A stretch of 64,000 nt of DNA from Tricharina praecox (lineage: Eukaryota): the NCBI RefSeq assembly GCF_024521635.1, contig NW_026250438.1, positions 124,001 to 188,000 of the forward strand, given 5' to 3'. Position 1 is the stretch's first letter; every line of letters begins with the position of its first letter. The notes under the pieces were generated by a model. That model searched no databases, was not told the origin of the DNA, and was given only the letters and a program-made list of their open reading frames with translations. Of this stretch, positions 16,341 to 37,607 are shown in pieces. The translations under genes and the position numbers were made by a program.

Positions 16341-18554
16341 TCACCGCTTCTTCTTCTTGAAATTCATATACTTGCTCCACCAAATCGACGTTTTCAGGGC
16401 GAATCCAGTTTTATACCGCTATAGTTTCCGTATCAGTCAGTCCGTCTTCCTCTATAGTTCATGCGACAATCGTCAGGAGGGCGAGCGTGCATACCTTATA
16501 TGTAACGATACGACTCCCATCGACGAGCTCATCAGGCTGCGAATCGATATGGAACCCGAGCCACGGCATGAGTTTTGCAAAGATGACCCAGTAGATGAAG
16601 CCGCCAACGATGATGCCGGATGCCACGCCAGGCGTGACATACGATGGGATGTCGGGCTGGCTGAATGGCGGCCACCACGTGAGCACGATGATGAACAGGT
16701 TGAGTGGAACGTAGATCGCGATGATCGTGAGCATGACCCGCCATGGAAGCATGTGTGGCTCCCATCGGTGGATACCCGTCTTGCGATACCGCAGGAATAC
16801 CACTCCGAGAGACACGACAACTGGCCAGAGCTGTTAGAAATCATGACACAGTGTAGCAGTTGTAAAGGGTAACAAACTTATCATCCAGTTCTGTCCGTAG
16901 ATGAAGAGATCCGTGATAAGATTGTAAGCCGCATCGTCCTTGTTGCTCGGCGTGAATATCTTAAGACCATTAGCCGAAAGCCAAAAAAAAAAAAAAAAAC
17001 GACGGGCCTTTTTCCCGATGGGTCAATACGTACGATGAAAGCAGCCGCAACGAACCAGTGCAGGACCAAGGCGCCGACAGGAGTATCGTAGTGACTCTGC
17101 CTTGCGAAATACTTCGAAAACGGCAGAATCCTGAGCTTAGCAATCTCCTGCTTCACTCTTGCCAGCCCGTACGTCGACGACACAAAGTTGCCCATGATGG
17201 ACAATGCGACCATGACCTTGAAGCCCCTCTCGATGAACCAGCTGTCACCAAAGACCTTGACGAAGAACTTGGCCGCGACCATGTCTCCACCCGCCATCAA
17301 CTCCTCGTCCGAGAGCACCGTGAAGTACGCAACGTTCGCCAGCACGTACAGCACCGTCGTCAATCCTATCGCCGAGAAGGCGGCGATCTTGAAAACCTTC
17401 GATTCGTTGCCTGGCGGTCGGCGCACCTCCGACAGGACATAGTTCGCGTTCTCCCAGCCCGTGTACGCCCACAACACGCCCAGTATGGCGTTCGAGTATT
17501 CCCACATGGTCATGGTCCTCGTCACCATGGCGTTATCCCAGTTGGAAAGACCGTACGTGCCTCCGCTTGTGACTCCCTTGCCCCTTCCCCCAGCCATCGC
17601 CGCAAACCCAACCATGATGATGAAGGTCACCAGAGTAACCTTGTAGATGGCAAGGAGGTTGTTGACGAAGATACCCATCTTGCGCGAGAAGATGTGCAGC
17701 AGGCATACCGCCGTCAGGAGACACAGCGCGAGGAACTTCTGTAAGCGATAGTCAGGGTTGATGTCTCCGGGCTCGAATGCCTGCAATATCAGTTTCGCGA
17801 AGGCGATAGTATTCCCGGCGAAGTGGGTCAGGAGAATAAAGAGTAATGCGATGACGATCACGGCAAGGTATTTCGGTCGCGGATAACACTCCTCGACCTG
17901 CGCAAGTCGTTAGCGAAAGTCTCCCGTGTCAAGTTGGCATGAGAGGGGGCCCTACGTAAACAACCTCGGCGCCGGAGAACGGCAACGTAATCCCCAACTC
18001 AACATAAATCAACAGTCTAACAGAAAACTCGGATCAGAATCGGGTTCAAGTTGGATTCCAGGAAGGATGAGAGAGAGCGAGTCTCCTGCATCAAAAAACA
18101 CCCCCCTCCCCCAAAAAAAAACAGAAGCCATCAAAAAGGAAGAGGGAGAGAAAAGTATCGCGCACCCAGCTAGACTCATAAGTCCACAAGCGACCCACAG
18201 GAACAACGCGACGCCTCTGCCACCACAGTTCTCCAGGACCACCGACGGTTTCGCAAAGACGCCAGTGCCGATCATCTTGCTGACGATGAGCGCAGCGGTC
18301 GAGAAGTACCCGAGCTTCTTCTGTTCTGGCATAGGCACGTACTCGACCCTATCGTCGCCGACGTCCTCGTCGGTGAGCCGCGGCGGACTGCGCAGCTCGA
18401 CCAGATCCTTCCGCCGATCGAACTCCATCGACGTGCTGGCCCCCCGCGCGTTCTGCCGCTGATAGTATTGCGGAAACGCCTCCGCCCCAGTGCTCGCGTC
18501 GGACCGCACCGACATCAGCTCGACGTCGGACGAGATTCGTCCGCCCCCCGACAT
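16341..18554 (-). CDS. APC-superfamily amino-acid permease, MUP1/LAT-type (methionine permease-like)
   Basis: Multi-exon gene: KKLGYFSTAALIVSKMIGTGVFAKPS / GLLIYVELGITLPFSGAEVVY / VEECYPRPKY...WAYTGWENANYVLSEVRRP...ARVKQEIAKLRILPFS...TPVGALVLHW. The last exon RYKTGF...KKKKR* ends at 16341. Substrate is inferred from family resemblance. Confidence 0.9.
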
Positions 18555-22400: not shown

Positions 22401-25400
22401 ACTCTACATATCCAAGTATACCGGCGAGGTGAGGCGAGCTCCTCGAACGGTACTCGCAGGGTGGCGGTTGAGGAGGTAGGACAAGCGATGGCAACTCGCC
22501 GTCCACTCGTGTACTGCACCAACAAAGTACACATGTAGAGTACAGTGGGTAGAGCACTCTATCGGTATCTTGTATATCTTCGATAGGAAATGGGAGGCCC
22601 GACTCCGGTGAACTGTCATCGTCGCCGTTCTGTCGGGGAGTGGGGATAAGAACAAACGAAGATCATGAGAACGAAGCGAAGCGAATGGGTTCCATCATGC
22701 CATGGTCGCCAACGAACTCCATATTAGACAGACATGGCGAAAGGCTTGTCCCGGGTCCTGGTCCGCGGCGGGGTTGTGCTGGTGGTGGTGCTGGCGGCGG
22801 CCGGCGGGAAAGAGCTATCCCGCCGCCCACCGCCCGCCGCCGCCCGCCCGCCGCCCGGCGTCTAAATCCAAATCTAAATCTGAAGCTTGCACAGAAATCG
22901 GACGGGATTTCCCCAGGACTCGCTCGGCTAGAACACCCACCACAGGGCTGATGGTCAAGTCCTTACTCCACACAGTTAGGTACCTCCAGCCCAGCCCAGC
23001 AACCAGGGCTCCTCCGGTTTCGACGGCATGGCACGGCACGGACTCGGGGTCAGATTCCCCTCTCTCTCGCACAGAACAGCACAGGCCAACAGGCCAACAG
23101 ATGATACCCAGTTCCTCTGCTATGCATCCAAGCCCCCTCCGCTGTCACTGCCCAGTGTCCACCGTCCACCGTCCGTACTCTACAGCATGGATACATATCC
23201 CTCCAGACTCCAGCGTCCGCAGGCCATCCACCATCCCAAGTACCTAGGCCCATGTATCATCGCTAGGCACACATACTCTACATACGGCGGATCGGATCGC
23301 CACCAACTCCGCCCGTGTGGGTGGGTTGGGCGGGTGGACGAGTCGAGATAATGCTCCCATGCGCGTGCTCTTCTCTGTTGTACTCTAGGTACTCTGTTGT
23401 ACTGTACTCCGTTGTACTTTACTCTGTTGTGTTATGCTCTGCTGTGCTGTGCCACGGCAGATTTTTCTCTTTCCTTCTCGTCGTCTGGACGCTGGACTGG
23501 GCGGAGACGGGGGCGTCCGCCTTTGTATGTGACTCTGTGTACTATATAGTATGTATGCAGGTATTGTATGCAGGATGGCTGTCCGGATACCGCCGGGATC
23601 CTGAGGATTTATGTATGTATCATAGCCAAGTATTTATGTGCGTATTTACAGTATGTATGAATTTGTGGGGGAGGGAGGGGGAATAGGCTCCAATAGAGTG
23701 AGGGAGAATATCTACCTAGAATCTAGGATCTAGGTATCATACTACTTTGTTACTTGGGTATCTACTATCTACTATCGACGGACATGGGTTTATTCCGAGC
23801 TGGCATTTATGTGGGTGATTATTTACTTGGATCTCGACTGTGCCACCCGGGGGCCCCTAGGAGCGGGAAATGACAGCGCGGGGGGATGAGAGGAAACGGA
23901 CTGTGAATGTATGGATGGATTTATCTACTCTAACTGCAGTCTGCCGGGTCCAGAGTGAAGTTGTAACTTGTGACTAATTTCACCCAAGTGTGTGTAATGT
24001 AGAGTACATAGGGTATCCAGAATATTGGTATTGATCTCTAGTATCTGGAGCCGTGAATTCTTACATAATAATACCTAGAGTACCTCGTGAGCACTCTACT
24101 CGATGCATTCACGTTCCATCCATCCAACTATGCACGGCCATACCTATACCAACACTTCATAAGCTCATACTAAGTACAAAGGTAAGATGTAAATAGGTAG
24201 TCGCATACCCGTCGGTATATATATGGCATCTACAACCTAGGTACCTCCCTATATACTCGATATCTACAGTACCGACATGCATCACGCACCCTCCCGCGTT
24301 TGAAGTTTCACGAAAGAGGCATCCAACCTCCGCACAACCTCCGCCCCCGGCTTGAGCCCTTAGTTATTCCAGTCTTTTTTTTCCTTCTCGCTGGCGGCAA
24401 CAACAATCTTAAGGTTATATAAACTCTAATCGACGCCTTCGCCTCTACCTCAGCCTCCGAAAACAGGGTATGAGGACGTGTGCGGGGAGCGGAGGAATCA
24501 TTGCTTGTTTACTACCTACTCTACGTCGATGTCGAGATTTCCCAGGGCGTGCGGTGGATATGCACGTGCCCGTGCCCGTGCGCATAACTAACCCACAGCC
24601 AATGGGATCAACTTCCAGCTTTTCGCCGCGGATGAAGGATTCGCTCTGATATATCTGGAGATATAGATGTGTCGATATCGATAACTGCATGTCTGCGCTT
24701 GCCCCGCCAGCTCGGCGCTCCGTGGACGCGGCCAGCGGCTGGGTATGAATGTACCTATGTCTGCACCTATGTAGGGTTACGTTTCCGTCTCTGCGGAATT
24801 CCGTCCGAACGATCCGAAGCTTGTAGACTTACATACATACAAGCACCCAGCTTATCGGGCCTCGGGCCTTCGGGCCTGGTGAATCGGAAAAAAGCGCCGG
24901 TGGCTTGAAATGCCGAGTGATTCCACATGCAGCAAGAGTAATCGTTCGGACCGGCACGGCCGCGTTTTCCTTCGCCGTATGGTAGGTAAGGGTCCCGAAA
25001 CATTACCCCAGGGAAAGGGTGTGCTGTGGATCCGGTTTCGCGGAGATGTTGGTGGTGACCGAAGGGGATTTTAGGTGGACATATGGCGTTGTGGAGGTCG
25101 GCTTAGAAGGATGGAGTTGTGGGTTTTGAGTCATATACTATATGTACTTTCGCAGGAGATATAATGGAGGGCCATGGTCCTTATTTCTTAAACCGCTCGA
25201 TTTCTTTTTTTTTTGTTTCATCATCGTAGCATTCGACCTTTGCAGATCATGGCTGTGTACACGACCGGTTCCACCCCACTGTCTCCGATCGCTGGCCGCG
25301 AGCCCGATGTGGGTTCCCCATTGCCCTCCGCCCGGCCCCCTCCGCGCATAAAAAAGGGGCTCGATTTCTGTTGTCCTCTTTGATCCGTTGGAGGAGAGAT

Positions 25401-25475
25401 GGGTTTCAACTTCCGAGTGATATACTGTACTCTAGTATCTACGGGACAGAATGAAGTGCCATGTGTTTTCAGGGC

Positions 25476-25652
25476 TGGTGGAGGTGATTCACTGGAACGA
25501 TTGAGATGGAGAGAAGTGAAGTATGTTCGGTCTAGGAGCTACAGGTGCAAAAGAGAGAAATAAAATCAAACTTGAACCCGCTGCTGCACCGAATCCTCCA
25601 AGCACCCATCACTAGTCCTCCAAACGGCTACCTAGTAGACTACTCACCAGAA
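25476..25652 (-). repeat. LTR-like dispersed repeat, copy 1 (3' of gag)
   Basis: Aligns by eye with 26612-26730 (same orientation) and with 36136-36330 (inverted). Confidence 0.8.
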
Positions 25653-25682
25653 ATTATTGCCGAGCTTCTCATTCTTGAGCTT

Positions 25683-26480
25683 TTAGTTGTCGGTGGTTCG
25701 CTTGCCAGGAGGCTCCTCCCGCTGCTTCCGAAAGCAGTTCGAATCGATGTGGCCCCTTCGCCCGCAGTAGGCGCACTTCAAGGACTTCTTTCGTTTGTTG
25801 CGAGATTGCATCCTTGATTCATTCGACGCCTTGGGATACAAAAGCGCATCAGGCGCGATGCCTTTGACGCTTCGTATTTCAGCTTCTCGAGCAAGCAGCA
25901 TTCGCAGGATTTCGTCCGGCTTCCTGTCCAGAGATTCGGATTCGATACGGCCCTCGATAAGCTGTACCGTGATGTACCAGTCCGCACTGTAAGGGTCGAT
26001 ACCGTGGAGCAGATAGAAGGAATGCTCCCTCTTGGACATCTTCTCGGAATCCTCTTTGGCGGCAAGATTGAACTGGTTGACGGCGTGCTGGATGCTTCGG
26101 GCGTAGGCTTCGACGCTGCCCAGATCTTCAAGACGAGTGCTAGAAAGTTCTTCCCGAATTTCGTAGGAACTCTTCTGAATCTTGGTAGCATAGTCTTCCT
26201 TGATCTTTTCCCACAGCGCCCGAGGCTCCTCGTAGTCGATGTACTTCTTCTGCATATCTTCGTCCATGGCCAAGAGAATTGTAGACCTGGCAATCTCCTT
26301 ACGCTGGGACCAGGAAAACCATTCAGCGATTGAGGACTTCTCTGGTTCCCCCTCTATGCCTCTGAGGATGTTCGAGCACATGTTCAGCCCACAAACCAGG
26401 CGAATGTCGAATGCCCACTCTTCGTAGTTGGTGGCATTTAACTTGGCGATGCCAGCTGTTGCCTGCAGAAGGTAGTCCAT
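25683..26480 (-). CDS. Ty1/copia-type Gag-like protein (265 aa) with CCHC zinc knuckle; no pol
   Basis: Intronless ORF: IAKLNATNYEEW (copia gag N-terminal KLNxxNYxxW), ARSTILLAM..PRALWEKIKEDY..SVEAYARSI..YLLHGI (UBN2/Retrotran_gag_2-like), and CAYCGRRGHIDSNC (CX2CX4HX4C). Confidence 0.87.
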   Translation of the reverse strand: MDYLLQATAGIAKLNATNYEEWAFDIRLVCGLNMCSNILRGIEGEPEKSSIAEWFSWSQRKEIARSTILLAMDEDMQKKYIDYEEPRALWEKIKEDYATKIQKSSYEIREELSSTRLEDLGSVEAYARSIQHAVNQFNLAAKEDSEKMSKREHSFYLLHGIDPYSADWYITVQLIEGRIESESLDRKPDEILRMLLAREAEIRSVKGIAPDALLYPKASNESRMQSRNKRKKSLKCAYCGRRGHIDSNCFRKQREEPPGKRTTDN

Positions 26481-26510
26481 CGTTGCTGAGGGTTTGCACG
26501 ACGTTGCTGT

Positions 26511-26613
26511 TCGTGGAGTTAGTCGTGAGGTCGTGGAGTTGGTCGTGTGGTCGTGGAGTTGGTCGTGTGTTCGTATGTTCGTGTGGCCGCTGCTCGTCTG
26601 CTCGTCTGCTCGT
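26511..26613. repeat. Short tandem repeats in the gag leader (~20-bp unit x3; CTGCTCGT x3)
   Basis: tcgtggagtt(a/g)gtcgtg(a/t)gg x3 and ctgctcgtctgctcgtctgctcgt. Confidence 0.8.
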
Positions 26614-26730
26614 GGAGGTGACCACTGGAGCGGCCGGGATGGGGAGAAGTGAAGTATGTTCGGTGTAGGAGTTACAGGTATAAGAGAGAGAGATAGAGGG
26701 AGGGAGAGAAAGAAAACCAAACTTAGACCT
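26612..26730 (-). repeat. LTR-like dispersed repeat, copy 2 (5' of gag, partial)
   Basis: gtggaggtga..cactgga.cg...g.gatgg.gagaagtgaagtatgttcggt.taggag.tacaggt...agagag..aaa.caaactt is shared with copy 1. Hand count: about 84% identity over 80 bp. Confidence 0.8.
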
Positions 26731-26959
26731 CGGTCCGAAACCCAGATGTAAACGTACAATCATAACGACCGAGTGCGAACGCATGCACCACGACCAGTCG
26801 AGAACCCGGTCCAGGCCCGCCTGCCCGCACTAACCGGAAAAGGCCACCCTGCACCCCACGCGTGCGTCAGAGCCTCACTCTAGTTACCGATTGCAGAAAA
26901 AAAGTTTCAATTCACGTCTCCCACCGCAATCGCACTCGTACCTCCGATCGCACCATACG

Positions 26960-33752: not shown

Positions 33753-34142
33753 GCGGTCGCGTGTGTTTCTTTCTTCTTCTTCGAATTGATTTCTGTTTTT
33801 GAGAGGGGGTATTTTTTTAGTCCTGGACTTGTATGGCTTCGTTGGCTGGGAATTCTTTTCTGTTCGGGTGCTTGTTTTCATCCTCATTTTTATTAAGTCT
33901 GTCGATATACCGGGTTTGCGTAACGGAATGAGAGAACATCAATTTATTGTCGCATGCGGCCTTTTCATGACCATTTGAAGCCGTGTCACCAGGCTACGAG
34001 TGACTCCCGATGACACACCACCGTGCTCCGCCAAGCGCCCTGGCCCACCTATTAGCTCAACCCCTGCCCCAATTTGTAGCCCCGCAGTCGAAGTGACCCT
34101 CCCGCACGCCCGCATGGACCCGTGCCGACCTCGCACATCCCC

Positions 34143-35941: not shown

Positions 35942-36135
35942 ATAGACTGTAGATACCATAGAGAGTGGAGATATCCGGATAGTGACGAAAACAGCTAAAC
36001 TGGCTGAGAATGTGCCCACCTAAGTACCTACTGCGAGAGTGCGAGAGTGCTTACATACCGTCCATCGCCCGTACATACCCTCGCCTTCCAAGTTCCGTCT
36101 ACGGTGCGCAGTTACGTTTCTCGCAGACGAGTGTG

Positions 36136-36330
36136 TTCCTATGAATAGTCCACTAGCCGTTCGGAGGACCGGTGATGGGTGCTTCGAACATTCGGTGCTT
36201 GGAATATTCGGTGCGGTAGCGAGTCCAAGTTTGGTTTTCTTTCTCTCTCTCTCTCTCTTGTACCCGTAGCTCCTAGGCCTCAAGACACCGCTTCACTCCA
36301 TCTCGATTGTTCCAGTGAATCATCACCACC
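36136..36330 (+). repeat. LTR-like dispersed repeat, copy 3 (solo; inverted relative to copies 1 and 2)
   Basis: Its reverse complement matches 25476-25652: gattcactggaac.at.gagatggag, ctaggagctac.ggt.caa.agagag, aaa.caaacttg.ac.cgct.c.gcaccgaat..tccaagcacc, catcac..gtcctcc.aacggcta. Confidence 0.82.
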
Positions 36331-37607
36331 ACCACGAGTCCTTCCAACATCTTACTCGTCAGATTCACCCGTCACATTCACGTAGTGAATTGAATGAACT
36401 CCAAGCCTCTGGGTCTTTGGTTTGGCCGACGGTGAAGCCTGAAGACCCAGGGGCATGAGCGATCAAATGTGGCACCCAGCCTGCGACGACGTCCTGCGTC
36501 GGAGATAGTCCCTCAAGCTACATACCGCTCCTACTACGCGCGGAGTTATGGTAGGTAGGATAGTAGGACAGTATTCGGTGCAGTGATCATGGAATATCAC
36601 TCGCCAAATGTCATCTTTTGGAGGTTGGAGAATCTACTACCTAGTATGTCTGGAGGAGCTCATTACTACTATAGTACTCCTCTGCGGATGGAAGACGGAC
36701 CAGACTCCAGAGCTAGCAAGCTGTCTATTGGCCAAAGCAAGACGTATTTCGATTTGGGCACATCACATCACATCGCACCTCCCGCTTCACATTGCACCTC
36801 GAGCAAACAATTCTCTGTGCGCAAATTACGCAAATGCTACAAAATCCAAACGTCCAACTCCGACACTGTAATTTCCATTTTTACCGTAACTTCGGTCACT
36901 GTCGAGAAGCGAGTGAGATCGTGTGCCGGACGCATTTGGGAGGGGGGTGCGGAGGTATGCTGGTTTGGAAGTTGGACCAGAGTTCCGAAATCCGTATTCA
37001 CGCGGGAGGGCGTCGTGATTTTGAGGTGTTCACTGCTTGGACGGGACGCTTCGCTGTTCTGACTCTTCCAAGCCTCAAGCCGAGTTAGATGGATGGGATG
37101 GGCGTTTCTTAGTCACATTGAGATTTGCTTAGCTACTGGTACAGAATACTCCGATACTCGTATGGGGCTCAATGGCGGGCAGCAGGATACATTGTACTAG
37201 TACATACCGGTATATGCGTAACCTGACTACGGCTCGAGGGCTTATTCGCTCGCTCGCTGCCAGATGAGCAACTGCCAACAGCCAACTGGATGATATCGAG
37301 GTTATATCATTATCATATATGAGCATTATACGCGTGTGAGCATCCAAAGATCCTCATTCTGCATGGCCAATGCAATTAAATTCATCAAAAACTAAACAAT
37401 AGGTACCTAAGTCGATAACAAAAGAATGGACATATAGTCATAACCGCTCACCCTCCCCTCCCCCTCACTCTCCACTGGTAACCCTCAATCTCTCTGCCAA
37501 TAGCCCCTCCCCTGGTTCCCTCCCTTCCTCCCTCCCAATATCCCACTCCATTTCCTTCACCGCCAACACTACCAGTCTCACTGTTTACCTTGCCCAAGCC
37601 CTACCAC

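Follow-up and report, generated by a model that had tools for sequence, protein, structure and literature searches.

A complete Ty1/copia gag without pol between decayed LTRs in Tricharina praecox: relic or retained gene?

The window analysed here, that is, the whole 64-kb stretch of Tricharina praecox DNA, contains a complete gag reading frame of the Ty1/copia type that lies between two diverged repeats and is not accompanied by pol, and the question raised by this locus is why the ORF is intact when the repeats around it have decayed. The reading that we prefer, with about an even chance of being correct, is that of a dead, internally deleted Ty1/copia LTR retrotransposon whose Gag has no role in the host. 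A host-retained (exapted) Gag is a more tentative proposition, under which the insertion would have the age indicated by its LTRs, with nothing but the gag ORF kept by purifying selection. A third explanation, improbable on the evidence given below, is a non-autonomous gag-only LTR element of the plant TR-GAG type, formed elsewhere and inserted here as LTR-gag-LTR with the help, in trans, of an autonomous copia partner. The parts of the element and a related repeat in the window are the following.

25475..25664, minus strand: 3' LTR, about 190 nt, its start set by homology to the LTR start of the metagenome locus L005 and to the solo copy
25665..25676, minus strand: purine-rich tract AAGAATGAGAAG, adjoining the 3' LTR on its 5' side, called PPT-like by position only
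25683..26480, minus strand: gag ORF, 265 codons from ATG to TAA with no stop or frameshift, with capsid domains and one CCHC knuckle
26481..26608, minus strand: leader, with motifs in common with the L005 leader and with tandem repeats, and with no TGG-type primer-binding site (PBS)
26609..26773, minus strand: 5' LTR remnant, of which 26609-26740 aligns well with the other copies and 26741-26773 is doubtful
36127..36338, plus strand: solo LTR of the same family, recognised by homology to the flanking repeats, with no gag adjoining

The gag reading frame and its product

The gag ORF, the sole ORF between the two LTRs, runs without interruption from ATG to TAA, as the sequence-only reading had described it. 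Of the three Pfam domains proposed there for an HMM search, Retrotran_gag_2 (PF14223) is recovered at residues 52-144 with an E-value of 2.8e-11 (43.6 bits against a cut-off of 27), and the other two remain below threshold, DUF4219 with 12.2 bits against 27 and zf-CCHC with 13.7 bits against 20.8. Although the zf-CCHC profile does not reach its cut-off, the knuckle read off the translation is indeed complete, with the spacing C-x2-C-x4-H-x4-C at residues 236-249, and its residues C236, C239, G243, H244 and C249 agree with the class-conserved columns. An AlphaFold2 model, computed from 33 aligned relatives, is nearly all helical with a mean pLDDT of 90.8, and a Foldseek search of the PDB started with this model identifies the Drosophila copia capsid as the top two matches (8vvw_A, E 2.5e-4, and 8s41_A, E 1.7e-2), the PNMA2 capsid also being among the matches. 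The capsid fold that the sequence-only reading proposed to look for is thus the one predicted, and a model of this confidence is a point in favour of exaptation. The profile match, the CCHC knuckle and the predicted capsid fold confirm that the ORF encodes a Ty1/copia Gag. The Drosophila copia Gag (Ty1/copia, Pseudoviridae; PDB 8vvw, 8s41) is alike in Retrotran_gag_2, the CCHC knuckle and the predicted fold, but the sequence identity of its capsid to the window Gag is 17-18%, and the window gag stands without pol.

The Gag proteins of relatives can be aligned with this protein from residue 1 up to residue 263 of 265. Of 54 columns with class conservation in 38 distant relatives, the window Gag retains 48 (the relatives themselves range from 36/54 to 53/54), which, together with the intact CCHC motif, favours exaptation and speaks against a dead relic. 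A tryptophan that is conserved in the family at residue 36 is, however, serine in the window Gag and leucine in a second strain, and its loss tells against exaptation. The slightly different strain is represented by sequencing run X2, in which a contig bridges 26197-27004, from gag into the neighbouring gene; the same arrangement in a second strain is a point for retention by the host, but the sole difference from the window in 284 nt of gag, 26374 G>A (Ser36 to Leu), is non-synonymous. No second region like this Gag is found anywhere in the 64-kb window. A second ORF of 265 aa, at 16881-17678, is an amino-acid permease exon, and the matching length is a coincidence.

Remnants of the element and its relatives

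The two repeats that flank gag, 25490-25562 and 26623-26695, share 73 nt at 84% identity (89 nt at 83% by blastn), and by our count the printed repeat cores differ by 12 substitutions, 11 of them transitions. The divergence of roughly 16%, with about 12 substitutions that are nearly all transitions, which had been noticed from the sequence alone, therefore holds for the core; the distance of about 30 bp from the gag stop to the repeat has to be corrected to about 18 nt, counted to the start of the 3' LTR. The repeat family is dispersed beyond the two copies beside gag, the third copy (36127-36338) being in the orientation opposite to that of the flanking pair. Among the related loci described below, L005 is a complete element with 208-bp LTRs that are 94% identical, CTTTC at both flanks and a leader of about 150 nt; TGGTTATGAGCCC directly follows its 5' LTR, and GGGGGAG, the counterpart in the relatives of the purine tract AAGAATGAGAAG, directly precedes its 3' LTR. 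The window repeats share with the L005 LTR blocks at the CTACTAGCCGT motif, a CT-rich run and a CCATCT..GAT..TCC.GTG block. Because of this homology to the LTRs of a full-length element, the 3' LTR and the 5' remnant are to be regarded as true LTRs of the copia lineage to which the Gag belongs.

The 5' LTR can be aligned only over its 3' part of about 130 nt, and its first 60-90 nt match neither the 3' LTR nor the solo copy nor the LTRs of relatives, so that its 5' part is, as judged from these alignments, truncated or replaced. The leader has GACCAACTCC and GCAACG-ATG in common with that of L005 and contains a threefold run of GCAGACGA as well as a threefold tandem repeat of 20 nt at 26508-26574. 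At the position where relatives carry TGGTTATGAGCCC, there is no TGG-type PBS, and the GCAGACGA run is present instead. No target-site duplication (TSD) is found, that is, there are no matching 5-nt flanks at the inferred ends, which are themselves uncertain. Rfam and tRNA scans of the region identify no structured RNA. From its sequence, the locus can be described as a truncated 5' LTR, leader, complete gag, PPT-like tract and 3' LTR, and, given that no PBS or TSD is recognisable, the element is probably immobile now. In its layout the locus agrees with a TR-GAG, since pol is missing and a complete gag, the only ORF, lies with a purine tract at the PPT position between two LTRs, and to this extent a gag-only family is favoured; the missing PBS and TSD, the truncated 5' LTR and the solo nature of the other LTR copy in the window speak against it.

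As noticed at the outset, there is no pol in the 64-kb window: a tblastn search with nine relatives (three gag/Pol_BBD fragments and six long relatives, three of which were checked with Pfam as copia polyproteins) yields matches only at 25647-26546. The relatives present a different organisation. A scan of metagenome contigs, started with an alignment of the window Gag and four relatives (five sequences), identifies 14 related loci, L001-L014. In the same tblastn search, gag is followed directly by Pol_BBD, integrase or RT in L001-L009. Behind the gag of L013 there is the first pol domain; the sequences of L011 and L014 end inside gag, and L010 and L012 are truncated, with no LTR after gag. 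The latter two were considered as further gag-only copies and rejected, L010 because its degenerate gag is cut off by unrelated sequence, and L012 because it covers residues 1-98 only and is located among satellite repeats. The LTR-gag-LTR layout is seen in none of the 14 related loci, which is evidence against a gag-only family. In nucleotide comparisons, the gag coding sequence (25702-26486) is the only part common to the window and the metagenome loci, with 66-79% identity; no flank is shared and no synteny is detectable between them.

The closest relatives for which DNA is available, with 48-59% Gag identity, all have pol directly after gag. Since pol follows gag directly in these nearest relatives and is missing from the window, the window copy can securely be classified, on the sequence, as a pol-less, internally deleted copia derivative with a complete gag. 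The homology of Gag up to residue 263 and the position of the stop 18 nt from the LTR suggest that the deletion spans the interval from about codon 259 to the purine tract. The junction can be placed only within this interval (25665-25705); local alignments of the gag tail and the downstream sequence to the pol 3' ends and 3' UTRs of relatives are low-scoring and mutually discordant.

A HMMER search yields 411 matches at E 1e-3 or better among 1.84 billion representatives. The nearest of these, with 50-74% identity, are short fragments, several with the knuckle missing or degenerate; more distant matches include P0011, P0016 and P0024 (36-41% identity), with Pol_BBD after gag, and P0047, P0065 and P0070 (23-28% identity), which are full copia polyproteins according to Pfam. 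In a set of about 15 billion predicted proteins, the closest one is a 168-aa fragment with 73-74% identity and the next ones look like broken element copies; the lack of an orthologue in this set counts against exaptation. The ESM Atlas contains generic copia-gag clusters only. A word search for longer fused gag-pol relatives scored none of 2583 candidates, which is a weak result given that the HMMER search and the metagenome loci did reveal gag-pol relatives. A stop or frameshift is present somewhere in all eight gag-pol loci that were translated, and gag is unbroken in L003 only. In view of the gag-pol relatives and of the disruptions in 8/8 translated loci, this is an ordinary copia lineage whose sampled copies are mostly decaying. 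That the other sampled members of the lineage are normal gag-pol elements, with all eight examined loci broken, speaks for the window copy being a relic as well.

Four sequencing runs bear on the locus. Run X1 matches the window sequence, with a single contig that spans 25353-26787 with zero differences. Over the gag interior, X1 contains one contig at 85% identity or more, and the summed depth equals the depth of this contig; because contigs show presence, not absence, this single-copy signal is weak evidence, and at that weight it agrees with exaptation and disagrees both with a gag-only family, of which no second contig at 85% or more is seen, and with a relic, for which no gag source copy at that identity is seen in this best DNA run. 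Variant letters of the solo LTR occur in 22 X1 contigs (at 36175) and in 11, which shows that the LTR family is multi-copy, a point for a gag-only family and also for a relic; eight X1 contigs of other LTR copies cease to match at 36127. An X1 joint, 25518>26695, was considered as an empty or solo-LTR allele and rejected, as it fits an LTR copy elsewhere (15 other letters between, and 35 nt on the shorter side). Runs X3 and X4 are RNA, as judged by spliced contigs over neighbouring genes. The neighbouring gene (NOC4-like) encodes a CBF/Mak21 domain and is covered by a spliced transcript contig that is oriented divergently to gag and has its start at 26939, some 165 nt away from the LTR remnant. 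No X3 or X4 contig extends across the gag interior, which says nothing for or against gag expression.

Age of the insertion and integrity of gag

The divergence of the LTRs was computed on the 96 columns in which all three LTR copies of the window align well. The K2P distance between the 3' LTR and the 5' LTR is about 0.18 (12 transitions and 3 transversions), compared with 0.205 between the 3' LTR and the solo LTR and 0.28 between the 5' LTR and the solo LTR. When the changes are polarised with the solo copy, 5 are unique to the 3' LTR and 10 to the 5' LTR; of the latter, 6 are AT>GC and fall within about 20 nt (the cluster was read from the alignment). Because AT>GC is the direction opposite to that of RIP, RIP is rejected as the source of the LTR divergence; the six-change cluster looks like one conversion tract, not six independent mutations.

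To put a probability on the survival of the ORF, neutral decay of 0.05-0.10 substitutions per site per lineage was assumed and the window gag ORF itself was mutated in simulation. With 0.05 substitutions per site, 0.6-3% of the runs leave the ORF without a stop or frameshift; with 0.08, the proportion falls to 0.1-0.7%, and with 0.11 to at most 0.08%. The contrast between decayed repeats and intact ORF, on which the sequence-only reading was built, is therefore upheld, with a probability of about 0.03 or less for an intact ORF under neutral decay at the LTR-derived age. An ORF that is intact at an LTR K2P of 0.18, with a neutral P of at most 0.03 at d of at least 0.05, favours exaptation, weighs against a relic, and is left unexplained by a gag-only family, which gives no reason for the ORF to outlive its LTRs. 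The same direction is indicated by L005, which serves as a calibrator: its gag is broken three times, by two stops and one frameshift, at only about 6% LTR divergence.

The window Gag shows no excess branch length either. The branch from the ancestor common with the sister clade is 0.418, compared with 0.37-0.42 within the sister clade, 0.431 for P0006, the nearest relative, and 0.615 for the visibly degenerate L009 from the same ancestor; a branch no longer than those of the sister clade is again a point for exaptation and against a relic. The pairwise dN/dS of about 0.15 between the window gag and L001-L003 lends exaptation no support: the value carries no information, given a saturated dS of about 2 and a path that for the most part was travelled as an active element. 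The GC3 of the window gag is 0.66, compared with 0.53-0.57 in relatives and 0.61-0.82 in host ORFs, and decides nothing. The preservation of gag beyond that of its surroundings is thus quantified, and it makes host use possible.

Readings of the locus and comparison with known systems

For a dead relic, the following course of events can be proposed. One deletion, or a template switch in reverse transcription, would have fused the last gag codons to the sequence just upstream of the PPT, in a copy located about 165 nt upstream of the transcript start of the neighbouring CBF/Mak21 (NOC4-like) gene. The PBS and the 5' part of the 5' LTR would have been lost later, so that no further reverse transcription would be possible. 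The ORF would be intact because the copy has mutated less than the LTRs imply, the LTR pair being a poor clock, given that the cluster of six AT>GC changes in one LTR resembles conversion from a diverged copy; a chimeric origin may have distorted the clock instead, or the gag ORF may be intact by luck. Such lucky relics are to be expected, as a scan that flags intact ORFs enriches them. Apart from the survival estimates, the conserved columns and the branch length given above, this course of events has against it the neatness of a deletion that removed all of pol, spared the whole of gag and kept the PPT position.

Retention of Gag by the host, which we regard as possible but on balance doubtful, accounts directly for the contrast between the intact ORF and the decayed cis elements: the non-coding parts needed for mobility (the PBS and half of the 5' LTR) would have decayed while gag was kept. 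By analogy with known Gag-derived factors, the full capsid-nucleocapsid product might then form particles, or might co-assemble with related copia Gag and poison it, as a restriction factor of the decoy type. Transcription would start from the LTR remnant or from a promoter region used in common with the divergent CBF/Mak21 gene, a gene of ribosome biogenesis. The locus would, if this minority view were correct, represent an early stage of domestication caught midway, in which a full-length copia Gag is retained in a filamentous fungus and the LTR scars are still legible. In addition to the lost tryptophan and the missing orthologue, this view is weakened by the possible distortion of the LTR clock, by the persistence of the LTR scars, unlike the deep co-options in print, and by a low prior, as a scan for intact ORFs enriches lucky relics.

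Precedents for exaptation are the single-copy co-opted fungal Ty1/copia gag genes Crtg12 and Crtg13 (Wang and Han 2021, PMC8321522). Both genes are single-copy and were defined by synteny or co-phylogeny across families together with measured selection; Crtg13 is placed earlier than a common ancestor of about 242 Ma, and no age is given for Crtg12. Compared by these descriptions only, the window gag is alike in being a fungal copia-derived gag ORF that is apparently single-copy and better preserved than neutral decay predicts, but differs in that LTR scars remain and the nearest relatives are elements.

A model for restriction by Gag alone is provided by p22/p18 of Ty1 in Saccharomyces, a Gag-derived copy-number-control factor (PMC4599808, PMC8458377). 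Like it, the window Gag would be a Gag-derived protein able to disturb the assembly of particles by related elements. As described, p22 is a Gag that lacks its N-terminal part and is initiated internally in an active element, whereas the window ORF encodes a full-length Gag, alignable with relatives from residue 1, in a pol-less immobile copy, and for this reason falls outside the p22-like class, membership in which was considered and rejected. No active cognate element was found for the window Gag.

The plant TR-GAGs resemble the window copy in having two LTRs and one ORF for a complete Gag and in deriving from a copia family that has autonomous members; AT5TE33540 of ATCOPIA63 is an example from Arabidopsis, where copia-family TR-GAGs have been shown to transpose (PMC8704663). 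TR-GAGs are mobile families with intact cis signals, unlike the window copy with its missing PBS and TSD, truncated 5' LTR and no sister copy seen. A full-text literature search found no description of elements of this type in fungi. Element-level selection for cis signals would account for the neat layout, with the family since dead or its copies unseen, but for want of a second gag copy in X1 (a weak point), of a PBS or a TSD and of a complete 5' LTR, and with close relatives that, where DNA is available, are all ordinary gag-pol elements, the mobile gag-only family put forward by the sequence-only reading is unsupported and very unlikely.

Internally deleted LTR elements are common, and the window element, taken alone, is an ordinary one. 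What sets it apart is that Gag is fully preserved while the cis elements have decayed, a contrast that can be measured. If the site is empty or broken in relatives, the locus would serve as a caution against dating by LTR divergence, a poor clock in the presence of many diverged LTR copies that can convert each other. Conservation in synteny and expression of the ORF, if shown, would make it a young co-option of Gag in a fungus, a stage that is absent from the record because the published cases, discovered through synteny between families, are deep, and the locus would offer a tractable system for the passage of a capsid gene from parasite to host use.

A SINE-like insert near the 3' LTR

Beside the gag-bearing, pol-less copia element, about 117 nt from its 3' LTR, the window carries a short insert.

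25209-25358: 150-nt insert, A-rich tail on the minus strand, flanked on either side by a 14-nt direct repeat
25195-25208 and 25359-25372: the flanking direct repeats, 14 nt, GCTCGATTTCT(T/G)TT

The match to other copies of the insert ends at 25208 on one side and at 25338-25354 on the other. Variant letters within it are carried by up to 31 contigs of the DNA run matching the window (X1), and in the RNA runs the depths of the covering contigs add up to about 14,450, with most of these contigs differing from the window's own copy. Rfam and tRNA scans of the insert gave no match. The insert resembles a small RNA retroposed in the manner of a SINE.

A second repeat lies farther along the window.

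33930-33963: 34 nt long, at the 3' end of a transcript contig with high coverage (31140-33959)

Numerous contigs from all four runs share this piece, with loose ends at either side, and one X1 contig links it to 25256, within the SINE-like insert.

Tandem arrays in the leader

Two short tandem arrays occupy the leader of the element, upstream of gag.

26508-26574: 20-nt unit, three copies
about 26587-26610: GCAGACGA, three copies

In run X2, from a slightly different strain, a contig over these arrays has 20 gap letters, counted without placement along the contig; they might represent one repeat unit fewer in that strain.

Satellites and decay among the copia relatives

At the truncated related locus L012, a 98-residue gag fragment stands between satellite arrays.

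L012 1-1930 and 8380-11385: 126-nt satellite, long arrays, both orientations

The loci L001-L009, on metagenome contigs, form one copia family with LTRs of about 208 bp. The 3' LTR of L004 runs for about 16 nt and then gives way to unrelated sequence. All eight translated gag-pol copies (L008 left out) contain stops or frameshifts. Several of the stops are Arg/Gln/Trp-to-stop changes, a pattern that would fit C>T mutation.
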